From: a virus
Direction: 5' to 3' (one strand)
Virus record (IMG/VR): IMGVR_UViG_3300041955_000531
DNA: 64,000 nucleotides
The stretch's first letter is position 1. Every line of letters starts with the position of its first letter. This document shows positions 28,179 through 54,015 of the stretch, in pieces. The notes below the pieces were generated by a model, which was not told where the DNA came from, did not search any database, and saw only the letters and a list, made by a program, of their open reading frames with translations. The position numbers were made by a program, and so were the translations under genes.

Positions 28179-30629
28179 ATGTCCTTCACATTTGCAAACT
28201 TGCCGGGTGTTCAGGTTCAGACCGTAGACGGTGGTCTGGCCGCCGTTAACACCCCAACAAATCAATCGATCATGGTCCTTGGCACCTCCGCGACTGGACC
28301 CGCAAACAGCCCTTACCAGGTTGTAAGCGTTGCTACAGCAACCACTCTTTTCGGGCTGGATGGCACGCTAATCCGCGGTATGTCTGAAGCGGCCGTATAC
28401 TGCGACAATGTTTACCTGATGCGTATCGGTACTGCTCAGGGCACACTTCTGGTGGGAACTTCTGGCAGTGGTTTTGGTCCGAACAATCCTATCGAGAGTG
28501 CGGTATTAGTCGGTGGACAGATTACCTACACGTTAGTTGGCACACCAACTCCTGATCTCTTGCAAGGTTCTCCGTTCACTGTCACGGGTTTCACGGCTGC
28601 TTATTACAACGTTACAGCACAGCCGATCGCATCGGTTGGTGCTAACACAATCGTTGTTAACCTCACTGGTCATGTTGATGAGGCAATCGAGTCGCCAACA
28701 GTTACCGACACTTATTCCAGCTTCCCGACAGCTCAAGCAACTAGCACGACTTCTTTGACCCTTAACTTTACTGGCTCCCCAACAGCGGGGGTTGTAGTTG
28801 GATCAGAAGTTGTTCTGAGTGCTCTGGACGATTCTGCTCATGATGTAGGTTCGTGGAATACGAACTACATCGTTTCCCAAGTCACTGCTCATACGCTTGT
28901 CCTGACTGGTACAGGTCTTGTTGTGGGTGGACCTTCCACTCTTATAGCAGGTGCTTTGTCTGCTACCAAGGCTATCGGCAAGCAGCCTGTAGCTGCACAG
29001 CCTGGATATTTGATCACTCTCGGTCAGGTTGAAGCAGATGCCAACTCGCGTTACAGCGTATGGTATGCTGCTGGTGCACTCTCGATTTGGTTGGACAATG
29101 AACTTGTCTACTCTAATGACCCTGTTGTAACAGGCAGCAGTGCTGTTATCAACACTGGTGATTGCGTTATTTCTGGTTCGGCAACAGGCGGCACAGCAAT
29201 CGGTACAGGTACCGACAGCTTGGCAACTGCCGTTCAGATCCAGAATATCAGCGGTGGTGCAACTTATGTTGCTCCTCAGACTGGTATTGGTCTCACCGGC
29301 CGCCAGCTGTACATCGCTCAACAGAATGCGATGAACCTGCTTCAGGGCTTCCCGATCGACGAAGTTATCGTTCCTGGTGCTCTTGGCGACAACCCGAACG
29401 TTGCGTTCTATCTTACTGGACCTTCGCCCAACAATCCAGCTACCAACCCCAATGCTCTTGATTGGTTGTGGACTGGTGTTGATGCTCAGGGCAATCCTAT
29501 CTATCAGTGGGCTTCCGAGACTTTGTTCTGGAACTCCACAAACCAGTCTGCTGCGAGTGCTTTGCTGCGAGGTCAAGGTTCCACTACTACAGCGGTTTCA
29601 TTCTCCTTCAGCGATCCAACAACTCGTTTGGCATCTGGTGTTGGTGCTGGTGGAACAGTCCAGCCGTCAGGCTTCCATGAAGTCAACTTCGCATATCAGC
29701 TCGCGCGCTTCTGCTTCAATCAGAGCGAAGCTCCCCAGGCTGACAACGGTGGTGCTCTCGGCTTCATCGGCTTTAGTGGCCCTGCAAGCTTGAGCAACTT
29801 CTCGCTCCCGGCCGTGAAGGCATGGATTGGCTACCTGCCAGTTTATGATCCTATCACTGGTCTTGCAACAGTATCTGGTGCTGGTTTGCTCGGTATTCCT
29901 TACCTGGTTGGCTGTGCAGCATCCAGTTTGAATACAGCAACTACAGAGGGTGGATCTCGCGCACGCGTTCCTGGCTTGTTTGATTCGGATTCGGGCGAAT
30001 ATGATGGTGGTCCAGAGATCGACAGCAACGGTTACAAGGTCGACATGGGCGCTTATCTCTGCCCACAGGGTGATTATGCCCTCCTGTCGAACGGCTACGG
30101 CACATATGTCGGCAACATCTCTGGTATCATCGCCGGCTTGGTCAGCACTCTTGACCAGCAGAAGGCGGTTACCAATAAGCCAGTTGCGGGAGCACAGCAG
30201 CTCTATCGTGCAAGCCTCAACCAGCTCGATGCTCTCACATTCGCAGACGTCAACATGCTCCGTTACAAGGGTGTGGGTGCTCTGCCAGTTGCCTTGATCG
30301 ACAAGACCGCGGCAACATCAGCAAGTGATTATACATTGGCCCTCCGTCAGCGCATCAAGTTCCTCGTGATCCAGACGCTGCTTACCGAAGCTAACAACTA
30401 CATCGGTAACGGAACCAATGATGGTTTGTCCTTGGTGGCCTTGAAGACTTCTCTTGACGCCGACTGCTTGAACCTCCAAAAGCGCGGCTACCTCTCGAGC
30501 TACAACTTCACGATCACCTCTACCCCAGCCCAGCAGAAGATTGGTCAGGCCTCCATCCAGATCAGTTTCGTTCCTGCTAATGAGCTGGTTCAGTTGAATG
30601 CCACAATCGGCATTAACCTGAACGCCTAA
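28179..30629 (+). CDS. Tail sheath protein
   Basis: N-terminal FANLPGVQVQTVDGGL...VLGTSATGP; C-terminal sheath domain (TNKPV...QLDAL...YIGN...ISFVPANELVQLNATI). Confidence 0.92.
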   Translation: MSFTFANLPGVQVQTVDGGLAAVNTPTNQSIMVLGTSATGPANSPYQVVSVATATTLFGLDGTLIRGMSEAAVYCDNVYLMRIGTAQGTLLVGTSGSGFGPNNPIESAVLVGGQITYTLVGTPTPDLLQGSPFTVTGFTAAYYNVTAQPIASVGANTIVVNLTGHVDEAIESPTVTDTYSSFPTAQATSTTSLTLNFTGSPTAGVVVGSEVVLSALDDSAHDVGSWNTNYIVSQVTAHTLVLTGTGLVVGGPSTLIAGALSATKAIGKQPVAAQPGYLITLGQVEADANSRYSVWYAAGALSIWLDNELVYSNDPVVTGSSAVINTGDCVISGSATGGTAIGTGTDSLATAVQIQNISGGATYVAPQTGIGLTGRQLYIAQQNAMNLLQGFPIDEVIVPGALGDNPNVAFYLTGPSPNNPATNPNALDWLWTGVDAQGNPIYQWASETLFWNSTNQSAASALLRGQGSTTTAVSFSFSDPTTRLASGVGAGGTVQPSGFHEVNFAYQLARFCFNQSEAPQADNGGALGFIGFSGPASLSNFSLPAVKAWIGYLPVYDPITGLATVSGAGLLGIPYLVGCAASSLNTATTEGGSRARVPGLFDSDSGEYDGGPEIDSNGYKVDMGAYLCPQGDYALLSNGYGTYVGNISGIIAGLVSTLDQQKAVTNKPVAGAQQLYRASLNQLDALTFADVNMLRYKGVGALPVALIDKTAATSASDYTLALRQRIKFLVIQTLLTEANNYIGNGTNDGLSLVALKTSLDADCLNLQKRGYLSSYNFTITSTPAQQKIGQASIQISFVPANELVQLNATIGINLNA

Positions 30630-30719: not shown

Positions 30720-31418
30720 ATGGCTATTAATACAAATAGCGGTAACTCGCTCGAAAGCGAAATCGCTCGTTCCTACAACTCGTTCTCAGGCTCGGACATC
30801 CGTGCCCAGATCGGCAACATCCCGTTCGCCGAGATCCAGGCGATCAGCTACAGTGTTACCCGCGAGAAGGCGCCTATCTATACGATGGGATCACCAGATC
30901 CTCGTGCCTTTAGCCGTAACAAGCGTGGCGTTGCTGGCTCCTTGGTCTGGATTAACTTCGATCGTCATGCTCTGTTGAACATCATCTATGAAGCATCAGG
31001 TGTATTCGTGGCTAACGTCGACGACGTTCGTCCGGAATACAACCCTGCCTCTCAACAGCAGCTTTCTCAGACAGCGATCTTCTCTTCGTCTCTTACCCGT
31101 GCGGTTCCTATCCCGCTCCCGACGACTGTCGACTCGGCAGAAGTGCCAATCAACTCCGTCTCGGGCTTCAAGCAGGAAGCAACTCCATGGTACTCGGATC
31201 AAATCCTCCCCTTTGACATCACTCTGGCCGGCACGAATGAAATCGGAGCCGCCACTACGATGAAGATCTTCGGTGTTGAGATCCTAAATGAAGGTATGGG
31301 AGTCAGCATCGATGACGCGGTGACCGAGATGCAAGCAACGTGGGTTGCTCGTCTCGTTGAGCCTTGGTCCGCTGTTGCGACCGCCTTCCCGAACCTCGCT
31401 GGTGAGGGTGGCAGTTAA
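30720..31418 (+). CDS. Tail tube protein
   Basis: Follows the sheath gene; SFSGSDI...QAISYSVTREKAPIYTMG...RGVAGSL...DQILPFDIT...GVEILNEG. Confidence 0.85.
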   Translation: MAINTNSGNSLESEIARSYNSFSGSDIRAQIGNIPFAEIQAISYSVTREKAPIYTMGSPDPRAFSRNKRGVAGSLVWINFDRHALLNIIYEASGVFVANVDDVRPEYNPASQQQLSQTAIFSSSLTRAVPIPLPTTVDSAEVPINSVSGFKQEATPWYSDQILPFDITLAGTNEIGAATTMKIFGVEILNEGMGVSIDDAVTEMQATWVARLVEPWSAVATAFPNLAGEGGS

Positions 31419-31434
31419 TCCGTAGGAGTTACCT

Positions 31435-31674
31435 ATGGGTTTCTTCTCACGTTTTGGTAAAGTTGCCGATCAGATCAATGCTTTTGGGATTGCTCATCCA
31501 AAAGCTACATCTGCCGTCCTACTTGGCACTGCAGGCTTAGCTTTCGGTGCTGGTGGTTATCAGATGTATCAGCATCATCGTAAAGCTGCGGCAATGCGCA
31601 AGTTCAATTCCATGTGGGCAAATGCCCATGGGACATTGGAAGATTCACAAGGCCGTGTTCGTGCGGCCTATTAA
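31435..31674 (+). CDS. Small basic protein with one TM helix
   Basis: AGGAG RBS; AVLLGTAGLAFGAGGY hydrophobic segment. Confidence 0.7.
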   Translation: MGFFSRFGKVADQINAFGIAHPKATSAVLLGTAGLAFGAGGYQMYQHHRKAAAMRKFNSMWANAHGTLEDSQGRVRAAY

Positions 31675-31705
31675 CTCTCAGGTTCGAAGCTAGTGCTCTA
31701 TCCAG

Positions 31706-31741
31706 GGGCTGCTGCTGATTCAGCAGCAGCCCTTTTGCTTT
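31706..31741 (+). terminator. Rho-independent terminator
   Basis: Perfect 12-bp stem GGGCTGCTGCTG-ATT-CAGCAGCAGCCC followed by TTTTGCTTT. Confidence 0.88.
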
Positions 31742-31754
31742 ATCCCTCCCTCCT

Positions 31755-32738
31755 ATGTCCATTCCCTCCCTCAGTGTAGTTACAGCTGGCTTTTCTCCAG
31801 TTAACGGCGACCAGACTTCCCTCCTTACGTCTGGTCTGTTTCCCGTTACTGAAAAGCAGCCGGGTCAATACGACTCAACCTCTACAACAACTCAGGGACA
31901 GCCAAACCCCACAGTAAGTGATCTAACTGATCAGACAGGAGGTTTGATCCCTACTGCTGGGAATACATTTCAAACATCGATTGGTATTCCGATCGGGACG
32001 GGCTCAGTCCCTTATGATTTGGAAGACTTGATCAATAATCCCAATGGGGGAATGGGACTCTCCATCTACAATCCAGATGGTACACTTACCACAGATCTCC
32101 AGAACAACTATTCAACCTACACAGGGACAGATCTGAAGATCATCGTGGATCTAGTCAACACAGACACCACAAGCACGATTCGCAAGAACCAGAAACAGCT
32201 GATTGAATGCACTACTTTCACTGTCTCCATCCACAGAGAGAAGTCTGCTGTGCGCGCGGCAGGCTACATCAATCCTAAGGGCTTTGCCCGCGGGCGCCGT
32301 ACAATAGCCGGTACGATGGTGCTCACTCAGTTCACCGTTGATATCCTGTACAGGTTCCTGATGGCTAACCAGTTATCCGCTCACGACCTGTCCAAGGATA
32401 CCTTCTATGTCAAGGTCGACCAACTTCCTCCATTCAATATGACCATGATCTTCACGGATGAGTTTGGCAATGCCAGCTATCGGCGTGTACTTGGTGTAGA
32501 CTTTGTGACCGATGGTGTGGTATACTCTACTAACGACATGATGACTGAACAGACTATCAGTTACATGGCCTCGGACTTCACACCTCTCTTGAACTTTGAA
32601 GCCAGTGCTTTGTTCCGTTCTGACAACGCTGGCCAGAGCGTGGCTACCGAGAATACCGTCGAATCAGTCATGAACAGCAAGCAACAGTTTGCTATCCCTC
32701 CGACCAACATCTTTTCCACACAAGGTAGTGGGTACTAA
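31755..32738 (+). CDS. Tail tube paralogue (tube initiator-like)
   Basis: TYTGTDL...TVSIHREK...GFARGRRTIAGTM...DQLPPFNMT...GVDFVTDG aligns by eye with the tube protein. Confidence 0.8.
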   Translation: MSIPSLSVVTAGFSPVNGDQTSLLTSGLFPVTEKQPGQYDSTSTTTQGQPNPTVSDLTDQTGGLIPTAGNTFQTSIGIPIGTGSVPYDLEDLINNPNGGMGLSIYNPDGTLTTDLQNNYSTYTGTDLKIIVDLVNTDTTSTIRKNQKQLIECTTFTVSIHREKSAVRAAGYINPKGFARGRRTIAGTMVLTQFTVDILYRFLMANQLSAHDLSKDTFYVKVDQLPPFNMTMIFTDEFGNASYRRVLGVDFVTDGVVYSTNDMMTEQTISYMASDFTPLLNFEASALFRSDNAGQSVATENTVESVMNSKQQFAIPPTNIFSTQGSGY

Positions 32739-35664: not shown

Positions 35665-38600
35665 ATGGCAACCTGGCACCAAAAGCATTTCTTTCACGTT
35701 CTCGACGTCGAGACCACAGGCCTGTCCGCTGGACATAAGAATACAGGCCTGCTCCAGATCTTCGCTTCAAAACTCCCTCCTTACGTAGCATCCCCGTTTC
35801 ACCCCACCACGTTAGTAAAACCCCGCACAGGATACACCGATCCTGTGAGCGGGGTTCACATTCCATTTGCATACAACTATGAGAAAGGTCAGCATGTTCT
35901 TTCTCAGGCCATGAAGCTTGGCCAGGAGAGTGAAGAAGAGTCAGCTCGACGCTTCTTTGCTTCCGCTGAAGAAGAGCTGTCTCGTAAGAAGCGTTTCCTG
36001 CTAACTGGCTGGAACGTCAAATATGATACTGGTGTGCTCACTGAGATCGCCAATCGTTATCCCAGCCTGCATGGATACAAAGACTTCTTCCAGCGCAAGG
36101 GGGTAAAGGTCTTCGGTCTGGAGCAGTCGTTCTTCGAACTTGCTTTGGGCTATGGTCAAGACAACCCAGAGTTCGCAGAACGTTACCTGCGTATGGGTCC
36201 TTCCACACCTATTACCAAGACTACAGGTCCTGGTATGCTGGCACGTAATGTTGAAGAGATGCAATGGGTGCCTGGCTGGAAGGTGGAGAATATTGCTGGA
36301 GCGGCTGGCGGGATGGAACGACTGCTGGGTCCTAAGCTGGCTGGGGCTGCTGGGTATCATGAGGCCGTGACTGACGTCAAGGTCGAGCAGACTCTCTTTG
36401 AGCGCCTGCGCACAGCCAGAAAGAATCTGCAGCGCGGTCACAGCTGGGAAGAAGCTCTTGGATCCGCACAACTCTTACCTGAAGGTGAGACTGCGGAGAC
36501 GTTCTTCTCCAAGATCTATGCCAACCCGTGGGCTGAGAAAGTAGCTGCTCAGGCTGAGCGTGGCGCCAAGGTCCTGCCCAAGAAGATGAGCGGTATAGGG
36601 AAGGGTCTTTCTCTCGCTCTTGTATTCGCCGGTGCAGCAACTGCAGCCTGGGCTATTGCTAGCAGCAAGCGAAGTGATCGCCAGACTCAGATCACTGGTC
36701 TCAGTGATACAGGTATGGCTGCTGACAGCCGTCATAAACTTACTGATTTCGGTTCAGGTTGGCAAGGACAAGATAATAGCCATACACTGCGACTGGCTAG
36801 TCTTCTGGTCGGTGGCGCCGCAGTCTTGGGAGCTCACAAGTTTGCTCTCGAGAACTGGTCTGGCTACGCAGAAGGAATCTATCAGTTTGCGAAGAAGATA
36901 GAGACTCGTTCTCCTGGTGCAATCTTTGGCACCTTCAGATTCTCTGAGCGAATGTCCAGCTACCTGCCTGAGGAAGTCTCCTTCAAGGCCGAGCAGTTGG
37001 TGCGTGGTTCAGAGCTTACCGAAATGGGTAAGCACATCCAGCGATTGATTGGTGTCAGCGCCCTGGATAAACGCTTTGCTAAAGAGGGAATGAGATTCAC
37101 TAGAACTTCAGCTTCCTCTCCATACTTGAGTTTGGTTGGTGGAAGAGGCGAATCTATTCGCTTTGCCCAGCGCGGACGGCTGACAGGTTCGGCTGCTTCG
37201 TTCGGTGGCCCACTCAAAGAACAGGTATTCCCTCGTACCCTGACTACTGAGGGTCCTCTGGCTGAGATGTGGGAGATGTTCCAGAATCTCCGCGGTAGTC
37301 AGAGACCAGGCACTCCTCTTACCAAAGGTCAGGCATTCAAGCAACAAGCTGGTGGAGAGTTCCGCTTCTTCGAACCTCTCTACGGCCGCAAGCCTGGATT
37401 CGTAGGTGGTGTAGAGTCTGCTTATAGAACAGGACAGCGTGCACTGTTTGAAGCTGCCGAGCGTCCTCTTCGCCTGCTGTCTGATATCGGTATGGGTCTG
37501 CCTAAAGGCTCATACAACAAGCTGTTCCACATCCCATTCCATGGCGAAGGTGGAATGCTCAATGCGTTGATGCTCAAGCGCGTGCTGCCTGCATATCTTG
37601 CTATCACGGCCGCGCGTTACATCAACTACCAGCTGGACAACAAACCAGCTGAGAAGCTCGCCGAGATACCACTCAAAGCTCACCTCGCTTGGGCGCGCGC
37701 AACAGATACAATCCCGGGTCTTCGTGCGATCACCGACAAGTATGAGGAGATCGTACCAGGTCCACAGTACGGTCCTGCAGCCATACCGATCGGTGCTGGT
37801 GCTATCGGTGCGGGTATTCACTGGTTCAACATCGCTCGCGGAGCAGAAGAGTTCCAAGTTCATGCTGCTCGAGCCGCTGCTTCTCGCAAGGCCTTCTGGA
37901 AGGGATTCGGTATAGGAGTCCTCATTGCTGCACCATTTATCCCTGGGATGATTGGCAGCCGCAAGACCGAAGACGAACTGCAACGTATCTACTCTGGTGA
38001 AGAAGAAGTTCCAGTCCGTGCAGGTCGTTGGTGGGATGTAGGTTCCACTCCATTCAGTGGCGGTCGCATCAAGTACTTCCGTCCGCACTGGTATCAGTTG
38101 ATGAAGTCCAAGGCCGAGATGGTCTCGACTTATGGATCAGAAGATGCTTATTGGGAACACCACCCACTGCTACATCCGTTCAAGTATATCAAGGATCCAT
38201 ACTGGCTAGAACGCGCGAACTATGCTAGCCGTCCGTATCCAATCACCTCGCCTGCGTTCTCCAACGTTCCTCTCATCGGTCCGTTGCTAGCTGCCACAAT
38301 CGGCCGCATCGTAAAGCCACCACAGAGAATGCACGAGGGCGAATGGGATATCAACAACTATACGTTGTATAGCCCACGTCTGGAACCCAACATGGAGTTG
38401 GGTGGTCTGCCGCCATCCAAGCCTCGTGAGGAGTTCGGCTTCAAGGATGTAGCTACCCGTGAAGCTGTGTCCTTCGCTGAATACACAGGTCTGCCTGGTT
38501 TCATTGCTACGACACTCTATGGCCAAGCAGGCCCACAAGGAACTCCTGGCAAGGATGTGATCCTGCAGGGCAGCCGCCAGATGACAAACCTGGCTCGCCA

Positions 38601-40584
38601 GTATTATCAGCGTGAGTTGGGTGCCGTGTCAGGTTTCAACCCGAGTGGAACAGGCGGCATGCCATTCGGCTATTCAGAACCTCTCCGCCGTTTCATTCAG
38701 CCTGATAAGCTAATGCCTCAGGCCAATGAAATCCCCAATACAATGCCTCGCTGGCTGCCTGGCGAAGACTACATGATCAACTTCCGTACTGGCGATCCGT
38801 TCGCCAAGATACCGGAAGGTGGTGCTCGTCTCCCAGGCCGTGGCTATGCCGCTCTGCACCCAGAACTCCGCGGGCTAAAGCCTGAAGACTATCCAGACAT
38901 TACTCGCTACAAGATCCTGGCTGACGTTGCTCCTTGGAGCAAGGAGTACATGATCTATCGTGCCAAGGTACGTGCGGCCGCACAGAAAGATCAGCGTACA
39001 GCGATTGAGTTTGCACGCACTGAAGACCAAGTGCGTCAGATGAAGGAATCCACGATCCAGATCCAGCAGCGTCGTTTCACTGCTCCGATCGAACAGCTTC
39101 AGGGTACAATCACCAAGGCTACACCAGAGGGTATAGAGCTGGAGCAATACCCGGGTCGTAAGTTCATGCTCAGTTCTCTGGGTATGTCCGCGGCTGATCT
39201 CTCAGCTATGACCCTCGGCGAGGAGAATGAACTTACCCGCTCTCAGAGTGCCAAGGCAGTTACAGATAAGCAAGCCGCTCTCGAAGAGTATCTGACTGGT
39301 CAGATTGGTATGCAGGCTACTCTTGTGGTTCCTAAGGGAACTGAGCAGCATGCTGCTGAAGCTCGTGCTGTCCTCTTCGTCGATAACGTTAACATCAACA
39401 AGGAGATCATAGACAAGGGTCTCGGTCAGTTCAGAAAGGACTATGGCGGAGCTGAAGCTCAAGCCATGTATTCCTCCACCCAGGTGGCTCTAGGTAAGTA
39501 TGCTGAGACTTTGTCTTTCACTGGTGAAGGTGGTCCTCTTCGTTTCGTCCCGACTCCATTCCATACTAAGTACTGGAATGAGCGCACAGCTCTGTCCCTT
39601 TATCAGGAGCAGGAAGTCTACGGTGCTCGTATGCGTAGATGGCAGCACCCGTTCCGTGATATGATTGCTCCATGGGCTCGTGGTGCGTACCGTCGTTTCA
39701 CTGGCGGTATGTTGGTGCCAGAGCAAGTTGAAAATCGCCGTCTGATGGACAGCTTGGTTGATCAGTTGGAATATCTGCGTGCAGATATCCAAGCAGGTGC
39801 ACATCCTGGGCAGAAAGGCAGGTATACTAGTCAGGGAAAGAGAACGAATATAGGTGCCAATCTATTTGGCAATCCTCAGTTTATCTCTCAAACCCTCCCT
39901 CGGCGCGAGAAGCTTTACTTCCCAGCATTCCTCCAAGAAACAGATCCGGAGAAGCGCCAGCAGATCCTACAATCTGTCTCTCCGGAACTAGCTCGAGCCC
40001 TTACTGCTCAGTGGGTAAAAACTGATGCTATACTTGCTCGCCTCGCGGGCAAGAGTGTGCCAGCCATTGAAGAAGGCGGAGTCCTCTACACAGAGGAAGG
40101 CCTCAAAGAGTATGAGCAAGCGAAAACAGACCTCAGCTATTCCGACTACATCCGTTCGAAACAAATCGCCGAAACCTTTGGCAAGCTCGGCTTTGATATC
40201 CCCGGTCCTGGTTCTCCGCTATGGGAGCAAGGCATTGACTATGAGGATGTCAAGCTTAAGATTATTCAGAACGAGGGCTATGATTACCACGACTTCAACA
40301 TCTACGACGACAGGGCAGCCCTCCTCTGGCGCAAGCCCTACATCGATGGAGCTGTTAGAGAGCTTGTTTCTAGCGGTTCACAACCTACAGAGCGCATACG
40401 ACAAACTGTGGAGCGTATTATCCTCGAGGGACAAGATAAGAATCCGCAAGTGGTCGCCTCGGGCGGTCCTAACCGAGTGGCAGGCTCCAACGTGTCTATA
40501 AACGTCGACGAACAGGGTGACAAAGAGGTTATGAGGGATATTCGCCGTAATGAGGACGAGTACCGGGAAGAGAGTACCAGCTAA
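35665..40584 (+). CDS. Tape-measure-like/ejected protein with an N-terminal DEDDh exonuclease and an internal SNase-like domain
   Basis: 1639 aa after the tail chaperones; LDVETTG, GWNVKYD and HEAVTD; several Gly/Ala hydrophobic helices; ARAVLFVDNVNINKEIIDKGLG. Confidence 0.75.
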   Translation: MATWHQKHFFHVLDVETTGLSAGHKNTGLLQIFASKLPPYVASPFHPTTLVKPRTGYTDPVSGVHIPFAYNYEKGQHVLSQAMKLGQESEEESARRFFASAEEELSRKKRFLLTGWNVKYDTGVLTEIANRYPSLHGYKDFFQRKGVKVFGLEQSFFELALGYGQDNPEFAERYLRMGPSTPITKTTGPGMLARNVEEMQWVPGWKVENIAGAAGGMERLLGPKLAGAAGYHEAVTDVKVEQTLFERLRTARKNLQRGHSWEEALGSAQLLPEGETAETFFSKIYANPWAEKVAAQAERGAKVLPKKMSGIGKGLSLALVFAGAATAAWAIASSKRSDRQTQITGLSDTGMAADSRHKLTDFGSGWQGQDNSHTLRLASLLVGGAAVLGAHKFALENWSGYAEGIYQFAKKIETRSPGAIFGTFRFSERMSSYLPEEVSFKAEQLVRGSELTEMGKHIQRLIGVSALDKRFAKEGMRFTRTSASSPYLSLVGGRGESIRFAQRGRLTGSAASFGGPLKEQVFPRTLTTEGPLAEMWEMFQNLRGSQRPGTPLTKGQAFKQQAGGEFRFFEPLYGRKPGFVGGVESAYRTGQRALFEAAERPLRLLSDIGMGLPKGSYNKLFHIPFHGEGGMLNALMLKRVLPAYLAITAARYINYQLDNKPAEKLAEIPLKAHLAWARATDTIPGLRAITDKYEEIVPGPQYGPAAIPIGAGAIGAGIHWFNIARGAEEFQVHAARAAASRKAFWKGFGIGVLIAAPFIPGMIGSRKTEDELQRIYSGEEEVPVRAGRWWDVGSTPFSGGRIKYFRPHWYQLMKSKAEMVSTYGSEDAYWEHHPLLHPFKYIKDPYWLERANYASRPYPITSPAFSNVPLIGPLLAATIGRIVKPPQRMHEGEWDINNYTLYSPRLEPNMELGGLPPSKPREEFGFKDVATREAVSFAEYTGLPGFIATTLYGQAGPQGTPGKDVILQGSRQMTNLARQYYQRELGAVSGFNPSGTGGMPFGYSEPLRRFIQPDKLMPQANEIPNTMPRWLPGEDYMINFRTGDPFAKIPEGGARLPGRGYAALHPELRGLKPEDYPDITRYKILADVAPWSKEYMIYRAKVRAAAQKDQRTAIEFARTEDQVRQMKESTIQIQQRRFTAPIEQLQGTITKATPEGIELEQYPGRKFMLSSLGMSAADLSAMTLGEENELTRSQSAKAVTDKQAALEEYLTGQIGMQATLVVPKGTEQHAAEARAVLFVDNVNINKEIIDKGLGQFRKDYGGAEAQAMYSSTQVALGKYAETLSFTGEGGPLRFVPTPFHTKYWNERTALSLYQEQEVYGARMRRWQHPFRDMIAPWARGAYRRFTGGMLVPEQVENRRLMDSLVDQLEYLRADIQAGAHPGQKGRYTSQGKRTNIGANLFGNPQFISQTLPRREKLYFPAFLQETDPEKRQQILQSVSPELARALTAQWVKTDAILARLAGKSVPAIEEGGVLYTEEGLKEYEQAKTDLSYSDYIRSKQIAETFGKLGFDIPGPGSPLWEQGIDYEDVKLKIIQNEGYDYHDFNIYDDRAALLWRKPYIDGAVRELVSSGSQPTERIRQTVERIILEGQDKNPQVVASGGPNRVAGSNVSINVDEQGDKEVMRDIRRNEDEYREESTS
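39823..39834 (+). promoter_or_regulatory. One-mismatch copy of the promoter-like motif (TATACTAGTCAG)
   Basis: GGTATACTAGTCAGGG, intragenic, about 830 nt upstream of the RNA polymerase-like gene. Confidence 0.35.
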
Positions 40585-40618
40585 ACTCCTAGAATGCCCC
40601 GTAAAGGGCCCTAGGAGT
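40585..40618 (+). other. Intergenic hairpin between the two giant genes
   Basis: ACTCCTAG pairs with CTAGGAGT, inner GCCC/GGGC; no U-tract. Confidence 0.55.
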
Positions 40619-40664: not shown

Positions 40665-43600
40665 ATGTTTACCGGGTTCCTAAAAGCCGTTAAAAGCCTT
40701 GCAACCGAACATCCAGGTGTGGCCTTTGCCACTGCCTTTGCCTCGGCTACGGCCCCTATTTTCCTTAGGGATGAGAACCGCGGTTACTTCCGGACTGCCG
40801 TCATAACTACCCCTATCGTAGCGGCTATGGGTCTTGCCGGCCCGGGCTTGGTAACATCTGCCTCCCGCACAGCTCGAGCTGGCATGCAGTTCGCACGTGA
40901 GATGCCTATGTTTTTTGGTAGCAATAAAGCTACTAGATTCAAGGACTTACGTTCAGCTCTGGAAAAGACAGGTGGGGGTGCAGGAGCTCTCAATCCCATC
41001 TTCCGTACCTGGGCCGACAATGCGGCCGTAGACTTCTTCAGCCAGGTTGACCGCGGTGGTCCACCGATCGAGAAGAGCATGGAGCAGGCGGAGAACCTCT
41101 TTCATGAGCTTCTGGGCATGTCCAACAAGCGTGATCTGCTTACCTATGCTGTGGAAGGCGCCAGACAGCGGGTAGCTTCTCCGTTAGATCTTACTAGAGT
41201 TGCGCGCGGAGGTCCTCTGGCCGGCATGGCAGAGTCAGAGCTCCGCGGTATCGTCAACGCCAATAGAGCTGATCCCCGCTTCGTCAAGGAGTTGAGCAGC
41301 CGTCTTGGCTGGGCCAAGAAGCTCAAGGATCTCGGTCCGTTTGCTAATCCACTCAAGATGAGCATGACTGGGAAGACTACCAGTATGGAGTGGCTGGAAG
41401 CTTATGGTCAGTTGCATGGTCAGCGTCCAGAAGTGGCTGATGCTATTCAGCGCGCGATCCGTCAGGGACAGGTGTCCTCTGCTACGGTCGTTGCCGAGCA
41501 GGTGGCAGATGGAACTGTCGGCCGCATGCTGGGTGTCAATATCAAGGGTCCAAAGGGCGAACTTCATATTCCTCTGTTTGATCCCAAGACAGGATCCGTC
41601 AACATTGAAGGCAAGGTTGGAGTCGGGCGCCACATTCACACACCAGAACGAGTATTCGAACTGGATACATTCGTTGCTGAACACCTGACTCAGGATTGGG
41701 GAAAGCTGAAAGGTGACATTGGTCGTGCTGCTTATTTCGGCGGCGTGGTCCCCGAAGACCCATTCAAGCTTCAAACACGTCTTGAATCTCAGCTTGCCAA
41801 CCTTTCTCCACAAGCTCTGTATATCCGTTCTCGTGCTGCTATTCCTAGCAGCTTGCCTGTTTATGGAGGCAAGGTATTTGAGGATCTGTCAGACCTGGAA
41901 CGGATCCAGTACACTATCAAGATGCTGGGTCGTGGTATGACTCGCATTGGTTCTGAGGGAGGCACATCGAAAGGTGTGTTCGAGTTCGCTGAATCGGAAC
42001 TCTACATCCCGGGAGGTGCGCCTTCGCTCGCTAAGCAAACGTATTTCTATAGATCCTTCACCAAGGACTTGCAGCTGAAAGCTGAGACCATTGGTGAGGA
42101 GTTCCGTCCAAGCTTTACAACCTCCGCGGTTGAATCCATCGGAGGCGTTCCGGAAATACAGATGTCCGTGGCTGGTGTGTCGCCACAACAGAAGTCGCTG
42201 TTCGGCGACTTGCCGAAAACAGCAGAAGGATTGGCTGGCTATAAAGAGACTGCTATCCAACGTATACTCGCCGACAATCCAAAGCTGACACGCGCCCAGG
42301 CAGAAGCTGCTTGGGGTAAGATCAGTGGTAAGCTCGGAGAGAAGGGCTACCTAGAGGCCGGTCGCGGCCTGGGTGGACTAGGTGAAGGTGACATCATCCT
42401 CCACGAGAAGTTCCGCCGGCTGAAGATGGAGTCGCGTAAGAACGTCTATGTCGACAAGCTCCATCTCAATCCCGAGGATTACATCAAAAAGTCTCTCAGC
42501 CCAGAGACACTAATCGGATTTGAGGGTTTGAATCCTGTCACATCGGAAGCTCCTTCTACATTCATAGAAGGCTGGTCCACTACGCCTAGCGGTCAGTTTG
42601 AGCTCAAGCTGCGTCAGGAGTATCCAGTCGAGACAGGAGCTAAGATAGACATCGCTGGTGTGAAGGGTTTGGCTATAGTACCCGAGGAAGACATCTTCCG
42701 TCGCCAGGTCGAGCTGTTGAATCTATACGGTGAGGCTACTGGGTCTAAGACTGCTATCCCTAGCTTTGTGGAAGCTCTAGCTCCGCTACACTACATGCAA
42801 GCTAAGACTAGCGATCCTTTCCGCCTTATGGTATCGCAAGCAGCTGCCGTGTCTAGCGACATTGCTGCTAACAGTGTGCATCTAAAGGCTGACTGGGCAA
42901 ATCTGGAAGCGTTGGATCGTGTCGATAAGTACATGGCTGATCTTGCTGCTCAGGGTATTCGTGCGCAGCGTACTGGTACTGGAAACAATGTCTTCCGTCT
43001 GCTCGAAGATTCGGAATACGTACGCAGCCTGGATCTGGAAGGCCGTCGACTCCGTATGCAATCGGTGGGACAGCTCACAGAAGACTACCTGCGTGATGTT
43101 GCTGGCTTTGCTCAGCGCGGTGCTCCTGGAACCGAGGGTGAACTCTTCTCTGCCTTCAGACGCAGTGGTGAAGAAAGTCTGATGAACTACATGCAGAAGA
43201 ACGCCATGTTCTCCTTTGCGGCGTTCTGGGATAGCACTCGCCGTAATGTACCTCAGATGGTCGGCGCCACATACGATATGTTCTCCGAGATGTGGAGAGC
43301 TGGTAATGTGGAAGGTATGCGGGAGTTGATGAGCCGCTTGGATTTCCATGGTGGAGATCCGGGAAGAGCTTCTGCTTTTGCTGCCCAGTTCGTAGGTGGT
43401 GACTTCACCAAGCCTCTGGGGACTGTTATCCCCATAGAGGAGGCTGCAGCCAATCTCAGAATAGGCATGATGGAAGGCCGAGTTGGAGGTATCTTTGATC
43501 CCTCAAACAAGCTCGTCCAAGAGAACTTTTCTATCAAGCTCGATCAGCCGGTGTATGCGCGTGTGGCTGGGCGTGACCTTGAGGTTACTCACATTCCTGT

Positions 43601-45434
43601 CCTGGGTAAGCTGGCACATGGCGGTGGTAGCAACCTCTATGAAAAGATTGGTGAGGGTCTTACTTATAGCCCCACGGATTATGAAAAGACACTGGCGGAT
43701 GTAGTCAAGTGGCAGAAGGATCCCGTCATGATGTCCGCGGCGATCTCTGCCCACCTCGATGAAGCTCAGCGTGTACTGTTCGGAAAGGAAGGATTCTACC
43801 GTGCCCGCGGCACAGATGTTCTGGGAGCTGTGTCTGGCTTCATTCAGACGCGCGCCCAGGAAAACCCATTTGAACTCCTTATCAATGAGCAGATGGCCGG
43901 CCGAGTCCGCGACCCTGAGATCCGTAAAGCATTACTCGCCGGAGAAGATATCTACGCTACGGCTGCTCGTCACCCTATTCAGTCAGCTCCTTACATGCGT
44001 GTGAAGGTGGCTCCTGATGCTGGCATGGGTCCTAACATGGTCGGTATGGATGAGCGCATCCGTGGCTTGTTCGGCGCCGATGATGATAAGGATATCCTGA
44101 ATCTGTTCTTCTATCGCAAGGGTTCTCAAGCCGAACGTGAAGCCCAAGCTGCTATCAATGCTCTGAATAGCAACCAGTGGAGAAGCCTGAAGACCCTTGA
44201 GATGCTGTACGGGAGCGTTGAAGACTCACGCAACATCGCAGAAGCTGGTGTGAAGACTCTGCCTTCTATGCTTGAAGAAAGTCTTAAGTTGGCTAGTGCA
44301 GGTGGAAGAGCAGAACAAGTCACACAGCGTATGGCTGGTGGTGTGGTTGGTGCTTACTCGAACTTGCTGACTCGTTTGTACATGAACGTCGAGATGCATC
44401 CTACGATCGGTGTGAAGCCGATGGAAAGAGATCTCCTCGGTCACATGCTGTGGACGATCCGTCAGGTACCTATCTCTGCCCAGAAGGGCAAGATGAAGTT
44501 GAATCCTGAGGATCCTCTGGGGTTGTACAGAAGACTGGTAGGTGGTTTGGAATCTCGCACGCCAGAAGGTGTGGCTAAGTTCACCGAAGGTATGAGAGAA
44601 GTCATCGCTGGTTACGGTAAGGAATCGATCATTACCGCAGAGACTGCTCCTTTGTTTGAAGAGCTTACTGGGATGAAGGTAGCTCCTGGCACTAAGCGGA
44701 ATGTCTTGATGGACGTGCTGGACTCCGAGAAGTTCCAAGGTACACTCTCCGAGTTTATCACAGGACGTAATGTTAGGGCAGATCGTGCTGCCGAGCTTCT
44801 GACTAAGGCAACTACGGATATGGAGGGTGATTCCCTCTATCGTCTGCAAGCTTTGTACAAGGAGATGGGTACGCCTCCTCCTTGGTTGATTGGCCTGGCG
44901 CGCGAGAAAGGCTCGGGGATGTCTGTATCCAAGGTCCTCGGAGCTATCAATGAAGGCCTCAAGAGTACTTATAGAGAGTCCAAAGGTAACCTAGGTGTTC
45001 TGGCTATTGGAGTCGGAGCCGCGGCTGTAGGAGCAGTTCTTACCAGCCATGTCAAGAAGGTTACTCCGACGCAGGCTACTTTCGGTCGGCCGCGTGGGAA
45101 CTTCAGACCAGAGACTACCGAGACTGTAACAGATCAAGTCCCGGGCGAGCCAATAACCGGTGCTATGTCTTCTGTTAACCCACCTCGTCGTCAGCTTCCT
45201 CTGCGTGGTGGTACATCTACAACGATCGTGGCGCCAATGCGCCAGCGTACAGATCTGGAAGTAAGAATGAAGGCTCAGAATCGCCAGGATACGATTGAAA
45301 TGCAACGTATGATTAGTCAGATCTCTGGCAATAATGGTGTATCAAATATCAATGTGAACTATCGCAACGGATGGAGAAACAAGATGAGTACTCTCCGCCG
45401 TCGTGAGACGATTCGAGAACAACTGGAATCCTAA
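40665..45434 (+). CDS. Candidate single-chain virion RNA polymerase (fused beta and beta' double-psi-barrel cores)
   Basis: Collinear motifs GEGDIILHEKF (aa 573), GAKIDIAGVKGLAIVPEED (aa 658), FGKEGFYR (G1040), RHP (aa 1102) and GADDDKD (aa 1137-1143). Confidence 0.75.
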   Translation: MFTGFLKAVKSLATEHPGVAFATAFASATAPIFLRDENRGYFRTAVITTPIVAAMGLAGPGLVTSASRTARAGMQFAREMPMFFGSNKATRFKDLRSALEKTGGGAGALNPIFRTWADNAAVDFFSQVDRGGPPIEKSMEQAENLFHELLGMSNKRDLLTYAVEGARQRVASPLDLTRVARGGPLAGMAESELRGIVNANRADPRFVKELSSRLGWAKKLKDLGPFANPLKMSMTGKTTSMEWLEAYGQLHGQRPEVADAIQRAIRQGQVSSATVVAEQVADGTVGRMLGVNIKGPKGELHIPLFDPKTGSVNIEGKVGVGRHIHTPERVFELDTFVAEHLTQDWGKLKGDIGRAAYFGGVVPEDPFKLQTRLESQLANLSPQALYIRSRAAIPSSLPVYGGKVFEDLSDLERIQYTIKMLGRGMTRIGSEGGTSKGVFEFAESELYIPGGAPSLAKQTYFYRSFTKDLQLKAETIGEEFRPSFTTSAVESIGGVPEIQMSVAGVSPQQKSLFGDLPKTAEGLAGYKETAIQRILADNPKLTRAQAEAAWGKISGKLGEKGYLEAGRGLGGLGEGDIILHEKFRRLKMESRKNVYVDKLHLNPEDYIKKSLSPETLIGFEGLNPVTSEAPSTFIEGWSTTPSGQFELKLRQEYPVETGAKIDIAGVKGLAIVPEEDIFRRQVELLNLYGEATGSKTAIPSFVEALAPLHYMQAKTSDPFRLMVSQAAAVSSDIAANSVHLKADWANLEALDRVDKYMADLAAQGIRAQRTGTGNNVFRLLEDSEYVRSLDLEGRRLRMQSVGQLTEDYLRDVAGFAQRGAPGTEGELFSAFRRSGEESLMNYMQKNAMFSFAAFWDSTRRNVPQMVGATYDMFSEMWRAGNVEGMRELMSRLDFHGGDPGRASAFAAQFVGGDFTKPLGTVIPIEEAAANLRIGMMEGRVGGIFDPSNKLVQENFSIKLDQPVYARVAGRDLEVTHIPVLGKLAHGGGSNLYEKIGEGLTYSPTDYEKTLADVVKWQKDPVMMSAAISAHLDEAQRVLFGKEGFYRARGTDVLGAVSGFIQTRAQENPFELLINEQMAGRVRDPEIRKALLAGEDIYATAARHPIQSAPYMRVKVAPDAGMGPNMVGMDERIRGLFGADDDKDILNLFFYRKGSQAEREAQAAINALNSNQWRSLKTLEMLYGSVEDSRNIAEAGVKTLPSMLEESLKLASAGGRAEQVTQRMAGGVVGAYSNLLTRLYMNVEMHPTIGVKPMERDLLGHMLWTIRQVPISAQKGKMKLNPEDPLGLYRRLVGGLESRTPEGVAKFTEGMREVIAGYGKESIITAETAPLFEELTGMKVAPGTKRNVLMDVLDSEKFQGTLSEFITGRNVRADRAAELLTKATTDMEGDSLYRLQALYKEMGTPPPWLIGLAREKGSGMSVSKVLGAINEGLKSTYRESKGNLGVLAIGVGAAAVGAVLTSHVKKVTPTQATFGRPRGNFRPETTETVTDQVPGEPITGAMSSVNPPRRQLPLRGGTSTTIVAPMRQRTDLEVRMKAQNRQDTIEMQRMISQISGNNGVSNINVNYRNGWRNKMSTLRRRETIREQLES

Positions 45435-48400
45435 TGGGACAGATAATCACAACTCGAGATGACAATCAAGCGGGATACTTCCGTATTGGTAACCTTGTAC
45501 TGAACATTCCTCCGGAACAGATTCAGTGCCACAAGGTTATCAACGGCGAAGAGGTTATGCCTCTGCGCTTCCCGTTCGCTATTCCTATCAAGACTGGTCA
45601 GTCGCGTTGGGATGTAACGTGGACCTGGAAGTGCGTTGCTGATTATGATAATGCCGACTACTCAGCATGGACTGATGTACAGATGCTCCTGGCTATGTTT
45701 AAGGCTGCTCCCTTCGTTGAAGTAGAGAACGATCATATCCGTCAGATCGTGAACCCTGCGGTTCTAACTCAAGGGGCTACTGCAGATGACGTTATGGCTT
45801 TTGCTCTGCGTCAGATGCGTGTGGAAACTAATCCTGATTTGATTGACACGCTGCAAGTTACCATGACGATGTCGTACTTCAACTATCGTCCGTACTCCAA
45901 GAACTTCCAGTATGATGATTGGACAGGCAACTCTACTTCCAGTGCTCTGAACTCGCCACTTTTCACAGCTTACTTGTTGAACTGGATCCAGACGAATCTG
46001 AACAGTGATCCTACCCAACAGCCTGATACAGGTATGACTGTCTCCTCCACGAACTGGCAGGGACAGATACCTGGCAGTATTACGTTTACTGCGCGCGAGT
46101 ATGCTGCTTGCGCACTGCCTAATGATACAGGTCTCAATCCTCCGCCGGCCGGATCTGGAGCCCTCAATCCAGCCAATCCTGGAGCCACTCGACAGGGTAC
46201 TGCTGCACAGGGGAAAGCCAGCGCTGGAAACTTCGTAGATAACATCGTTATCGACACAACTGATATACACAATCCTGCTATTCAGTGGTGGGTGAAGTCT
46301 GCTGCCTTTCCGGAATCCAACAACAACTATTCGGCGATCAACAAGTCTACAGTGACCAATACCGGCAAGCCTTCGGCTGCAGTAGGTCTTCTGCAGTGGG
46401 TGCGCGCGGCTGCTATTGATGCTATGAAGGCAGCTGATACTTATCTTGGCACACACTATGTTTCTGTGGCTGTGCAGAGTGGTTATCTGGTTGCTGCTCG
46501 TACTAACAATGGATACAACTGGGCATCTAAGTCTGTTCCAAGTCCACAGTCAACAGATCCTGTATTGGCAACCTATATCTCTTGGATGATGAGCCCGCCT
46601 ATCACAGGTGGACAAGCCCAGCTTCAGAATGACATGGCTACAGGTTGGGCTATCCTCAAGCTGCGTGCTAACAATGGTTCTGCTCTGTCGGCTTGGGAAG
46701 CACATCGTTTTGGACAAGGCATCGTGAATAATGGACAAGGTTCTCCAAGTATGGATAACACTTGGTTCACGAAGGCTACGAATACTTACCGCACACTATC
46801 GAATGATCCAAATGCTTTCACTCCTCAGGAAGGTACAATACCGCCTGCTGGTAATCCTAACCCGGCAACGAATACTACTCCAGTGGTAAGCGGTAACAAC
46901 ACAAACACACCTCCAAACATTTCTAACTCAACCAACCCACCACCGACTGCGACAACTCCGCCGCCGATGACAACGCAGATTCGCTATCTGTTGAACAACA
47001 ACTATACGTATGACTACGCTACTGAGTCTGCTGCGTTCCTATACAAAGAACACTACATCAAGATGACAGCTAAGGAGAATGATGATCAGCCGGCCAGCTC
47101 GGATATCGAAGATATAGATCCAGAGCACTTTATCTATCCGATGCAGATCTCTGTTGTGTTCGTCAATAACATCTCCCAGATCCCGTTGGCTGGGTATCAG
47201 TATCCGACCTATCAGCACTTGGGTCCTGGGTCTACACTGGTGTCTGTTGGCTTGCTGTCGAATGCCAAGATTCCAGAAGCTGCTGACAGTTATCCAGAAC
47301 CGGAACATACTGGACTCAGCTTGCTGTCCAACATGACTAAGATGCTGGAAGATCAGTTCCAGAGCTTGCGCAATGAGTGGCGCCGTGTGAACTCTATTCA
47401 TCGTATGCAATCGATAGCAGTCCAGAACCAAGTCCTTAACATGCTGGGTATTCGCGGCTTGTTGACAAAAGAACTGACAACTGAAACCATACCTGAAGCA
47501 GCAAGTGAAGTAACTGCCCAGTACAATGCCATTCAATATGAGAACGTCTATTATGCTGAGGGCCCAAATCCATATCAGGTGAATACAACACCCTTTGGAT
47601 TCTCTCAAATCTGGCTGAAGATCCTGCGTGACGGCACGATCGTCAATGACTTCTCTGGTGATACATCACTCACTGCCTTGGTGAACTTGGCAAAGATGAT
47701 GACGTATTCAAATACAGTATCTACCGCTGTTTCTTCAGTGACGGGTACTACTGCTACTGGAGCAGAAGCTAATCAGTTCTTGTGGAACTGGTTAACTCAG
47801 CAATCACCGACTGTAACACCAGCCGGAGGTGCAGTATCAGGTGCTATTGGGGGTGTTGCATTAGGCACAGCGGTGCAGCAAGCGCTTACGCATTTTCTGG
47901 CTCCGCCTCCTATCTCTAGTGAAGCTTACAATGTGTTGTCTCCTGCTCCTTTCGAGCAACAGGAGCAACTGCTGATGGTTAAGTTGCTAGATGAGTTTCC
48001 AAGCAGCCTGACGGGTCTGAGAGACAATACCTTCACCGAAGACTTCCCAGATATAGCGAATCGAATCAAGAGTCATGGTGGTCAGTTAAACTACTCCGAC
48101 TATTTCCTGATTAAGAACTGGCCAACTCTATCTGAGCTGCCGGATTATCAGCTGTTTCAAACCTACTCCAAGAATATTGATGCCCGTGTCTCTGCGGCTC
48201 TGGCTGCGGATCCTGCTTTAGAGTCACCAGTCAATCAGCTGTGGGATCAGTTTGTAGGCTTTGCCTATGCTAACAACTATCAGTTGATTCGTGACCAAAT
48301 GCAACGCGCGCAGTCGTCTCCACAGCTGAAACCTCTGTTTGTGACAACACAGACGACTACCACACCTGGTAATGCTCAGCTCCCAGGACACTCGTGCTAT

Positions 48401-52812: not shown

Positions 52813-54015
52813 ATGCCCATACAGCAACCTACCTCAGCGACCACATTCCAAAATCAGATCCTAAGCGCTCTGGCAACTACAGCCATCACTCAGTTGTCGC
52901 CTGGTGGTAAGGCGCGCGCGATCGCTGACATCGTTGGAGATGTGCTGGGCACTACAGAGACAGACTGTTTCAATATGGTGTCTCAGAGTCTGCTGCCTTA
53001 TGCTACTGGCAGCTCCCTAGATTTGATTGGAGATGTCTTTGGTGTGACGCGTCTAGCTCAGACGAATACTACGGTCATTCCAGATGACAACAACTTCGAG
53101 TTCTACGTACGTTCTGGAACCTTCGGTACAATCAATAACGGTCAGAACATCGTAGTGCCTGTAGGTACTACAGTCAGTTCTAGTAGTCCTGGTGGGCCAG
53201 TATTCGTTCTTACGCAGCCTGTGACTTTGGTGGCTGCAAACAGTTCGGCTTATTTTGCCGCAGCCAGCCAGACACCTGGTTCCGCAGGTAACATTGCTTC
53301 AGGTGTCATTGATACTTGCAACTTCCTGAACTATGCACAGTCACAGTACGGCACCCTGCTTGTAACGAACAACTTCGGTGTGGTTGGCGGCGCCGACGCG
53401 GAAGGTGATGATGACTACCGCTACAGAATCAACCTCAAGATCACGTCCAGAGCTGGAGCCAATCAAGCGGCTCTACAGTTCGCTATTCTACAAGTCCCCG
53501 GCGTGCAGAATGTTGTTTTCCAGCCTCAGGCGGGCACGTTTATCTGTTATGTTTATGGGATCGCCCCTCAAGTCCCTCCAAGTTTGCTCCAGCTCGTCCA
53601 AACAGCTATCAATAACACCGCAGCCTATCCATTAACAGGGTTGGCTGTAGCACCGAATCTCGTCGGCATTAGCCTTGAGACAACAGTCACCTTTGTTGCT
53701 GGTGTGTCTTCGGCCAATCAAGCCAGCATCATTCAAAATGCCGTGGCGGCCGCACAGAACTACATCAACAACTTAAGCATCGGGAGTCCCTTGATCATCA
53801 ACGAACTCGCAGCCCAGATAATCAACGCTGATCAGAATATTCTTGACATTGGAACTCCCGATGATCCTATAAACAGTATCTTCATCTGGCGCAGCCGCGC
53901 AGACAATACAAGATACAGCCGCTTCCTAGTACAAGACTACACGCCGGCTTTGGGCGAACGTATTGTAACTGAGTACTCGATCTCTAACCCGATCAACTTG
54001 ATCCCAGCATCCTAA
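52813..54015 (+). CDS. Baseplate J-like protein
   Basis: ATGSSLDLIGDVFGVTR, VPVGTTV, PGSAGNI, GGADAEGDDDYRYRI and LQVPGV. Confidence 0.92.
   Translation: MPIQQPTSATTFQNQILSALATTAITQLSPGGKARAIADIVGDVLGTTETDCFNMVSQSLLPYATGSSLDLIGDVFGVTRLAQTNTTVIPDDNNFEFYVRSGTFGTINNGQNIVVPVGTTVSSSSPGGPVFVLTQPVTLVAANSSAYFAAASQTPGSAGNIASGVIDTCNFLNYAQSQYGTLLVTNNFGVVGGADAEGDDDYRYRINLKITSRAGANQAALQFAILQVPGVQNVVFQPQAGTFICYVYGIAPQVPPSLLQLVQTAINNTAAYPLTGLAVAPNLVGISLETTVTFVAGVSSANQASIIQNAVAAAQNYINNLSIGSPLIINELAAQIINADQNILDIGTPDDPINSIFIWRSRADNTRYSRFLVQDYTPALGERIVTEYSISNPINLIPAS

Follow-up and report, generated by a model that had tools for sequence, protein, structure and literature searches.

What does a 1589-residue protein encoded in the middle of a phage tail module do if it carries the motifs of a cellular RNA polymerase, and does it travel inside the particle? 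This question is raised by the open reading frame (ORF) at positions 40665-45434 of a stretch of 64,000 nucleotides of DNA from the IMG/VR virus record IMGVR_UViG_3300041955_000531, a stretch that we call the window. The predicted structure supports the view that this ORF encodes, at amino acids (aa) ~380-1320, a cellular-type RNA polymerase in the form of a single chain, and in our judgement it is likely that the enzyme is active, is produced late, becomes part of the particle, enters the host when the tail contracts, and transcribes the first phage genes. The gene lies in the slot that the tape-measure protein gp146 fills in phage 0305phi8-36:

40665 to 45434, plus strand: predicted single-chain two-barrel RNA polymerase gene, 1589 aa, in the gp146 (tape-measure) slot

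The first step of the answer is the fold. An AlphaFold2 model was made of aa 380-1330, and Foldseek and structural alignments were run on it. The model was confident (predicted local distance difference test, pLDDT, 92.7; predicted template modelling score, pTM, 0.90), and the top 50 rows of the Foldseek search against the PDB were all RNA polymerase chains. A preliminary description of the sequence had proposed a single-chain two-barrel RNA polymerase in beta-then-beta' order and had named AlphaFold with Foldseek as the check; the predicted fold bears this out, with barrels in a beta-like and then a beta'-like half, and so does the conservation of the catalytic residues in the family, described below. 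The two halves are:

41802 to 43349, plus strand: beta-like half with the barrel that carries two lysines, aa 380-895, aligning to beta/Rpb2 and to the phiKZ and AR9 beta-like chains
43383 to 44624, plus strand: beta'-like half with a clamp-like segment, switch 2, catalytic barrel and bridge-helix region, aa 907-1320

The beta-like half aligns to residues 517-1297 of E. coli beta with Z 12.2-12.5 over 376-379 residues and to Rpb2 of RNA polymerase II with Z 13.1, the part from aa 380 to 864 aligning to Rpb2 and beta with Z 12-13. The beta'-like half follows Rpb1/Rpa1 between residue ~17 and the bridge-helix region (Z ~12, 290-360 residues aligned), and within it aa 1054-1150 match designed and natural double-psi barrels with Z 11.3 and a root-mean-square deviation (rmsd) of 1.9. 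One rigid alignment can also be carried across both barrels, with 406 residues aligned to QDE-1 (Z 9.8, rmsd 4.5), 354 to P74-26 gp62 (Z 10.0) and 303 to P23-45 gp96 (Z 9.0), and likewise with RDR2. The best match to the whole core came from fused Rpb2_6+Rpb1_2 clusters of the ESM Atlas, with template modelling (TM) scores of 0.51 and 0.50 over 591 and 566 residues. The phage protein phi14:2 gp66 is absent among the structural matches listed for the core, which does not exclude a family outside those listed. Before the core, aa 1-420 are predicted as helices plus a small beta domain and gave no match above background (best Z 7.6, a DinB-like bundle).

The second step is the active site. All five motifs that the preliminary description had named are present in the ORF where it had placed them. 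Conservation was counted in a 74-row alignment of family proteins that are mostly 22-35% identical, the denominators below being the rows that cover each site:

42375 to 42389, plus strand: GLGEG motif, aa 571-575 (G573 in 71/71 rows, E574 in 69/71)
42636 to 42668, plus strand: GAK..VKG motif with K660 and K667, G658-A-K660 starting at nucleotide 42636 (K660 in 69/72, K667 in 67/71)
43782 to 43802, plus strand: switch-2-like GKxGxxR motif (GKEGFYR), aa 1040-1046 (G1040 in 72/72, K1041 in 71/72, R1046 in 70/72)
43968 to 43976, plus strand: RxP motif, R1102-H-P1104 (R1102 in 71/72, P1104 in 72/72)
44079 to 44093, plus strand: catalytic DxDxD, D1139, D1141 and D1143 (each Asp in 71/71; spacers tallied below)

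The family itself comprises 19 close proteins and 79 clusters at 50% identity, the full-length ones mostly of 1500-1830 aa. Because the five motifs are conserved across proteins as divergent as this, they are more than chance: as the preliminary description required of homologues, the three Asp are kept in every covering row, and K660, K667, GKxGxxR and RxP stand at 93-100%.

The same description had called attention to an unusual DDDKD variant of the active site, found here as G1137-A-D1139-D-D1141-K-D1143 (GADDDKD, nucleotides 44073-44093). Its statement that the three Mg-binding Asp are retained holds in 71/71 rows, but the spacers are not special, D and K being the commonest of many states. 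The first spacer is D in 33 rows, F in 7, A in 6 and V, S or Q in 5 each; the second is K in 37, G in 14, L in 8 and R in 5. Just two family members have ADFDGD, 1/71 rows retain the Asn of NADFDGD, and the invariant Gly of the cellular DFDGD is mostly substituted. On a tree of the catalytic half, from which eight near-identical rows were excluded, the second spacer changes between K and G ~7 times, at least 4 of these changes being forced by well-supported branches. Therefore, DDDKD is the commonest state of a tolerant motif, and we rejected it as a distinct active-site class, given that the spacer state flips repeatedly on the tree and the spacers vary freely.

The reading frame is real and under purifying selection. 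No indel was found within the ORF in contigs of four wetland/peat sequencing studies (one possibly the window's own source), and a sister phage with a 215-kb genome and ~89% DNA identity differs in this gene by 143.5 silent and 14.5 replacement changes, a ratio of replacement to silent rates (dN/dS) of 0.029. At the level of sequence comparison the protein is nearly invisible: searches of Pfam, PHROG, PDB sequences and 50,697 phage records gave no useful match, with neither PF00562 nor PF00623 matching among the Pfam models, and every match of an ESM Atlas feature search stayed below 0.9. A scan of GTDB genomes found zero family members. One homologue of the upstream neighbour, P0108, 76% identical in the C-terminal region, is filed under a Candidatus Acidiferrales metagenome-assembled genome, which is a weak hint of an acidobacterial host and possibly a binning artefact.

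The third step is the position of the gene. The window carries a terminase, a portal, a capsid and the tail genes listed here, and therefore comes from a contractile-tailed phage:

28179 to 30629, plus strand: tail sheath of a contractile tail (phrog_16991, E 9e-41)
30720 to 32738, plus strand: two tail-tube paralogues (phrog_9206; in 0305phi8-36 two genes of like annotation occupy this position and are labelled tail tube and paralog)
35665 to 40584, plus strand: gp145 homologue, 1639 aa (tblastn to 0305phi8-36 ORF145, E 7e-21), with N-terminal DEDDh exonuclease motifs and hydrophobic helices
45434 to 51292, plus strand: baseplate hub, gp147 homologue by homology
52813 to 54015, plus strand: baseplate J (PF04865, E 2.6e-24)

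Homologues of the capsid, the upstream giant gene and the hub occur in one and the same set of six cultured phages (0305phi8-36, ME3, WH1, Edson, KLEB27-3 and MTATph1), and by this homology the phage, an uncultured giant, is a member of the 0305phi8-36/ME3/WH1 myovirus lineage. Lying between a gp145 homologue upstream and the gp147 hub downstream, the polymerase fills the gp146 slot. The preliminary description had placed it between a tape-measure-like gene and the hub; it is the polymerase itself that occupies the tape-measure slot. The order gp145-like gene, polymerase, hub was found at 10/10 loci having both neighbours in sequence, with at most 3 inserted genes, and, as in 0305phi8-36, a single gene separates the polymerase from the pair of tail chaperones that precede it. 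Its stop codon and the start of the hub share TAATG (45432-45436), from which translational coupling had been suggested; the overlap, which 3/9 relatives share and the rest do not, is therefore no defining feature of the family.

The two ends of the chain carry these features:

40713 to 40853, plus strand: N-terminal hydrophobic helix pair, a possible membrane segment, aa 17-63, with a conserved RGY..TTP motif, a hydropathy peak at aa 45, a hydrophobic helix at aa 45-63 and helices in the model
44991 to 45047, plus strand: C-terminal Gly/Ala-rich hydrophobic helix, aa 1443-1461, with a hydropathy peak in most family members
45102 to 45431, plus strand: conserved C-terminal domain, candidate assembly/anchoring end, aa 1480-1589 (44% mean identity, 60 rows)

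A similar hydrophobic helix lies 120-150 aa before the end of gp146, WH1 gp95 and ME3 gp36, and a profile of the C-terminal domain matches the cultured slot proteins weakly (E 0.004; controls at least 0.08). When the final 125 aa of the polymerase and the final 360 aa of the gp145-like neighbour were modelled as a complex, the score was 0.00, which is uninformative either way.

What is known of this slot comes from 0305phi8-36, whose gp146 was identified as a virion protein by mass spectrometry and assigned as the tape measure (PMC2147016); that role was assigned mainly from tail length, and only the last 60 residues match the counterpart in a related member of the lineage (PMC2147016). The catalytic halves of WH1 gp95 (E 4e-10, RYP..ADHDGD) and KLEB27-3 gp34 (E 2e-8, RYP..ADYDGD) match the family profile in a search of 13 targets, WH1 gp95 additionally giving a weak match to Pfam RNA_pol_Rpb1_2 (PF00623, E 5e-4), and these two proteins, by their profile matches, carry a polymerase catalytic core that has gone unannotated. 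ME3 gp36, with REP and GDHDQD and a weak profile score (E 0.009), probably carries the same core. Among BFVD fold matches, two have part lengths that fit WH1 gp95 (E 2e-11, TM 0.43; identity inferred from length) and ME3 gp36 (E 2e-5). The slot proteins of WH1, Edson, KLEB27-3 and ME3 are annotated only as structural or hypothetical, and in them the second lysine is seemingly an arginine, as judged by eye. At the top of the BFVD fold matches stood a "minor tail protein" from Siphoviridae sp. ctnpt50 (E 7.5e-13, TM 0.46); further matches were a second ME3 protein of 798 aa, possibly a non-virion polymerase, a protein of Microcystis phage MaMV-DC, and part of an Ma-LMM01 giant protein.

By motif and profile comparison, gp146 (2537 aa) has no DxDxD and no detectable polymerase domain, and MTATph1 gp27 is likewise a slot protein with neither DxDxD nor a polymerase domain. 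Both have DEDDh-type motifs instead, in 0305phi8-36 (L006:17624-25237) and in MTATph1 (L008:15513-19442), with a Pfam RNase_T match at E 5e-5, and the N-terminal region of WH1 gp95 and KLEB27-3 gp34, which are ~2450-2500 aa long, resembles the exonuclease part of MTATph1 gp27. In the window these motifs (LDVET, GWNVKYD and HEAVTD, 35665-36400) sit at the N-terminus of the gp145-like protein, as they do in 5 relatives (L004, L024, L025, L034, L035), other gp145-like proteins having a DUF559/Vsr-like or thermonuclease domain. Given that DEDDh motifs occupy the slot protein in two phages and a polymerase does so elsewhere, the slot thus swaps its cargo within one lineage: polymerase, exonuclease or both. 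As side observations, the slot of the Moorella phage MTATph1 appears split (L008:15513-22869) into a 1309-aa gene, a transposase insertion and a 313-aa gene, the end of which resembles the C-termini of both WH1 gp95 and KLEB27-3 gp34, and the KLEB27-3 gp145 homologue is in two pieces of 1340 and 677 aa around a 211-aa ORF (L010:5827-12980), which suggests an intron or a mobile endonuclease.

The fourth step is timing, for which the following features matter:

39823 to 39834, plus strand: late-type promoter-like motif TATACTAGTCAG, inside the upstream gp145-like gene, 842 nucleotides before the polymerase start
40585 to 40617, plus strand: intergenic hairpin with no U tract (fold of the 80-nucleotide gap, -19.5 kcal/mol), its arms kept in the sister phage

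The consensus TATACTAATCAG has 4 copies in the window at no more than 1 mismatch, where 0.24 are expected (at 10309, 27434, 39823 and 51306), and 11 exact copies in the sister genome, mostly preceding gene blocks; it stands before the head, tail and baseplate blocks and resembles a -10 element. The copy before the polymerase encodes Tyr-Thr, and TAT ACT followed by A (TATACTA) occurs at the same place in 9/13 distinct loci, where codon usage in the five loci computed expects 0.1-0.45 per locus, although kinship may inflate the 9/13. At 3/4 of the loci with no TATACTA the polymerase start overlaps the upstream stop, and the TATACTA core is also found ahead of the post-hub gene in seven relatives. 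The 80-nucleotide gap before the polymerase start has no clear Shine-Dalgarno sequence. The sister genome encodes a sigma-70-region-4 gene (G002, 60152-61288), towards the end of which lies a copy of the motif; 65 of its intergenic gaps held no early promoter motif beyond what shuffles gave (best 6 versus 5), and no second two-barrel polymerase was detected in its 215 kb by searches that also miss known-divergent members. The simplest reading is that the host core with a phage sigma would make the late RNA, and that the polymerase would itself be a late product, useful only if borne by the particle.

Our proposal is thus as follows. A DNA-dependent polymerase core (aa ~380-1320), with two hydrophobic helices around it and a short conserved stretch at the C-terminus, would be produced late alongside the tail proteins and incorporated into the particle through the ends that it shares with the tape-measure slot; contraction of the sheath would bring it into the host, where it would transcribe the first phage genes, including that of the phage sigma-like factor, and the host core polymerase with this factor would then read the TATACTAATCAG promoters. 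Indirect support for the virion part of the proposal comes from the fixed position, from the late-type promoter motif, and from gp146, the counterpart in position, being a virion protein. The computations show the fold, the order of the subunits, the conservation of the catalytic residues, the purifying selection, the constant position and the late-type motif upstream; from these we infer catalysis, late expression, packaging, injection, the target genes and the role of the sigma-like factor.

Several points weigh against this proposal. The scores against solved polymerases are moderate (Z 9-13; best Foldseek E 5e-5), the glycine of the cellular DFDGD is mostly replaced and the Asn before it nearly always lost. 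Length was the main ground on which gp146 itself was taken for a tape measure; gp146, the sole slot protein with stated mass-spectrometry support, appears to have no polymerase domain; and its link to the family consists of position and the weak C-terminal likeness mentioned above. In addition, the "structural" labels of WH1 gp095 and KLEB27-3 gp034 come with no stated basis in the records.

How would such an enzyme be carried? The 2537 aa of gp146 and the 486-nm tail of 0305phi8-36 correspond to 0.19 nm per residue, and the flanks of the window polymerase measure ~380 and ~270 aa, the enzyme being ~60% of the chain; therefore, the flanks alone could not span much of a tail, and either the enzyme would travel unfolded as the tape and refold after ejection, or it would ride as cargo of the tube, baseplate or head. 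One explanation of the second kind is that the packaged active polymerase is an ejection protein of the head or baseplate, forming a channel across the envelope with the gp145-like neighbour and having no ruler role, with the gp145-like protein or some other serving as the tape; it falls within our proposal and differs from it in location only. Such channels made by ejection proteins have precedents in the crAss and N4 phages. We hold this to be a serious possibility, if somewhat short of an even chance: so large a globular part with short flanks, the hydrophobic helices in both giant genes, the DEDDh module that moves between both of them as cargo would, and the fact that Hardies' assignment of gp146 as tape was by length only all favour it, whereas tape measures are classically encoded where this gene lies, behind two chaperone-sized genes and ahead of the hub, and the family lengths clustering at ~1500-1830 aa are compatible with a length constraint.

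Somewhat unlikely in our estimate is the explanation of the first kind, in which the polymerase is the tail ruler, threaded unfolded in the contractile tail tube, setting tail length, crossing the envelope and refolding into an active enzyme; anchored in the membrane, the refolded polymerase would transcribe and help to pull in the genome, and in some relatives a stand-alone unfoldase of the ClpB/ClpC type would do the loading or refolding. Pfam and PHROG searches gave no tape-measure profile match for the polymerase, and the mostly extended helical or repeat sequence that is typical of tape measures was not found, aa 380-1330 being a confident globular enzyme. In three distant relatives a stand-alone AAA+ gene of ~360-380 aa, corresponding to the second ring of ClpB/ClpC, lies between the gp145-like gene and the polymerase (L023:7793-8944, L026:8906-9994 and L027:8796-9869; Walker A intact, a GYVG pore loop in L026, E 3e-63 to ClpC), accompanied in L023 by a peptidase C1 gene in the same interval. 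The ClpB-type gene was not found in the sister genome or in four cultured phages, and this neighbouring ATPase is a lead for loading or refolding.

Two further explanations deny the delivery of an active transcriptase. That the fold is dead or repurposed as a structural tail protein, or is another nucleotidyl transferase (primase-like, RNA-dependent or a DNA polymerase), would agree with the non-canonical spacers and the lost Asn, with the slot proteins of 0305phi8-36 and MTATph1 that do not have the domain at all, and with two-barrel folds serving also RNA-dependent RNA polymerases (RdRP) and PolD (PMC10770324); we find it improbable, given that the three Asp are invariant while both spacers vary, that the lysines, RxP and switch 2 are kept at such low identity, and that the folds most similar to it belong to DNA-dependent RNA polymerases that have a clamp-like region. 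The weakest explanation, which we regard as slightly less probable still, is a non-virion polymerase with a YonO-like role that sits in the tail operon by chance and transcribes the late genes, for even if it is the sole two-barrel polymerase detected in the sister genome and the phage-specific motif of the late genes needs some reader, the gene lies downstream of that same motif and so would appear too late to initiate its own class, a sigma-70-region-4 protein is encoded in the sister genome and the motif is like a -10 element, and hydrophobic end helices in a fixed tail slot are unexpected for a soluble late enzyme.

Virion polymerases at the tape-measure position were previously known from one group of Thermus phages, and the computed results point to a version that is widespread in contractile-tailed jumbo phages, differs in structure and escapes sequence searches of Pfam, PHROG and the PDB. 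The same results give a new annotation to large genes of WH1, Edson and KLEB27-3, and probably of ME3, that have been labelled "structural" or "hypothetical", and such cultured relatives make the passage of a folded enzyme of ~100 kDa through a tail directly testable. In addition, spacer positions of DxDxD that tolerate almost any residue mean that searches for DFDGD miss such enzymes. We found no paper that calls the gp146-slot proteins polymerases, in a literature search that did not reach most subscription papers and whose silence is therefore not proof; the supplements of Chaban et al. do not name ME3, WH1, KLEB27-3 or 0305phi8-36, and for 0305phi8-36 the YonO-like enzyme is the only one in the list of Iyer et al. 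2021.

Compared with known systems, SPbeta YonO and 0305phi8-36 gp99 are also single-chain two-barrel phage polymerases, but they are RdRP-like (PF05183) and encoded outside the tail module. A YonO-like identity was rejected, given that PF05183 finds gp99 as the positive control (E 1e-20) and nothing in the sister genome. The crAss-like phi14:2 gp66 is injected and transcribes the early genes, the host enzyme serving the middle and late ones (Drobysheva et al., 10.1101/2020.03.07.982082); it shares a single two-barrel chain, a non-G spacer (DFDID in gp66) and a gene beside those of virion proteins, but differs in virion type and gene context, in being most like QDE-1, whereas the window core scores best against fused beta-beta' enzymes, and in the F of DFDxD, kept in 7/71 family rows and replaced by D in the window. 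Those fused single-chain polymerases (ESM Atlas, PF00562+PF00623) provide the best whole-core match with identical domain order, but they are of ~900-1000 aa and match Pfam, whereas the window polymerase matches neither model and has ~650 extra residues with hydrophobic helices.

The closest precedent in position, and together with phi14:2 gp66 a precedent for the proposed delivery, is P23-45 gp96 of a Thermus phage, a virion RNA polymerase that is fused to a tape measure and transcribes the pre-early genes (PDB 8H2M/8H2N; Chaban et al. 2024, PMC10770324), with which the window polymerase shares the single-chain two-barrel DxDxD core (Z 9.0, 303 aligned), the tape-measure position and hydrophobic segments. 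In gp96, however, the enzyme is a clamp-less N-terminal domain on a 5002-aa tape in a very long tail, with a second polymerase, gp64; in the window it is central in 1589 aa with ~270 aa after the core, has a clamp-like beta' segment and switch 2, and belongs to a contractile tail, with no tblastn match in the 50,697 phage records and no second polymerase found. Within the lineage, 0305phi8-36 gp146 shares the slot between gp145 and hub and the hydrophobic helix near the C-terminus but differs in its 2537 aa, its missing DxDxD, its DEDDh-like motifs and the separate YonO-like polymerase gp99 of that phage, whereas WH1 gp095, its Edson orthologue, KLEB27-3 gp034 and ME3 gp036 share with the window polymerase both the slot and the combination of RxP with DxDxD (ADHDGD, ADYDGD and GDHDQD).

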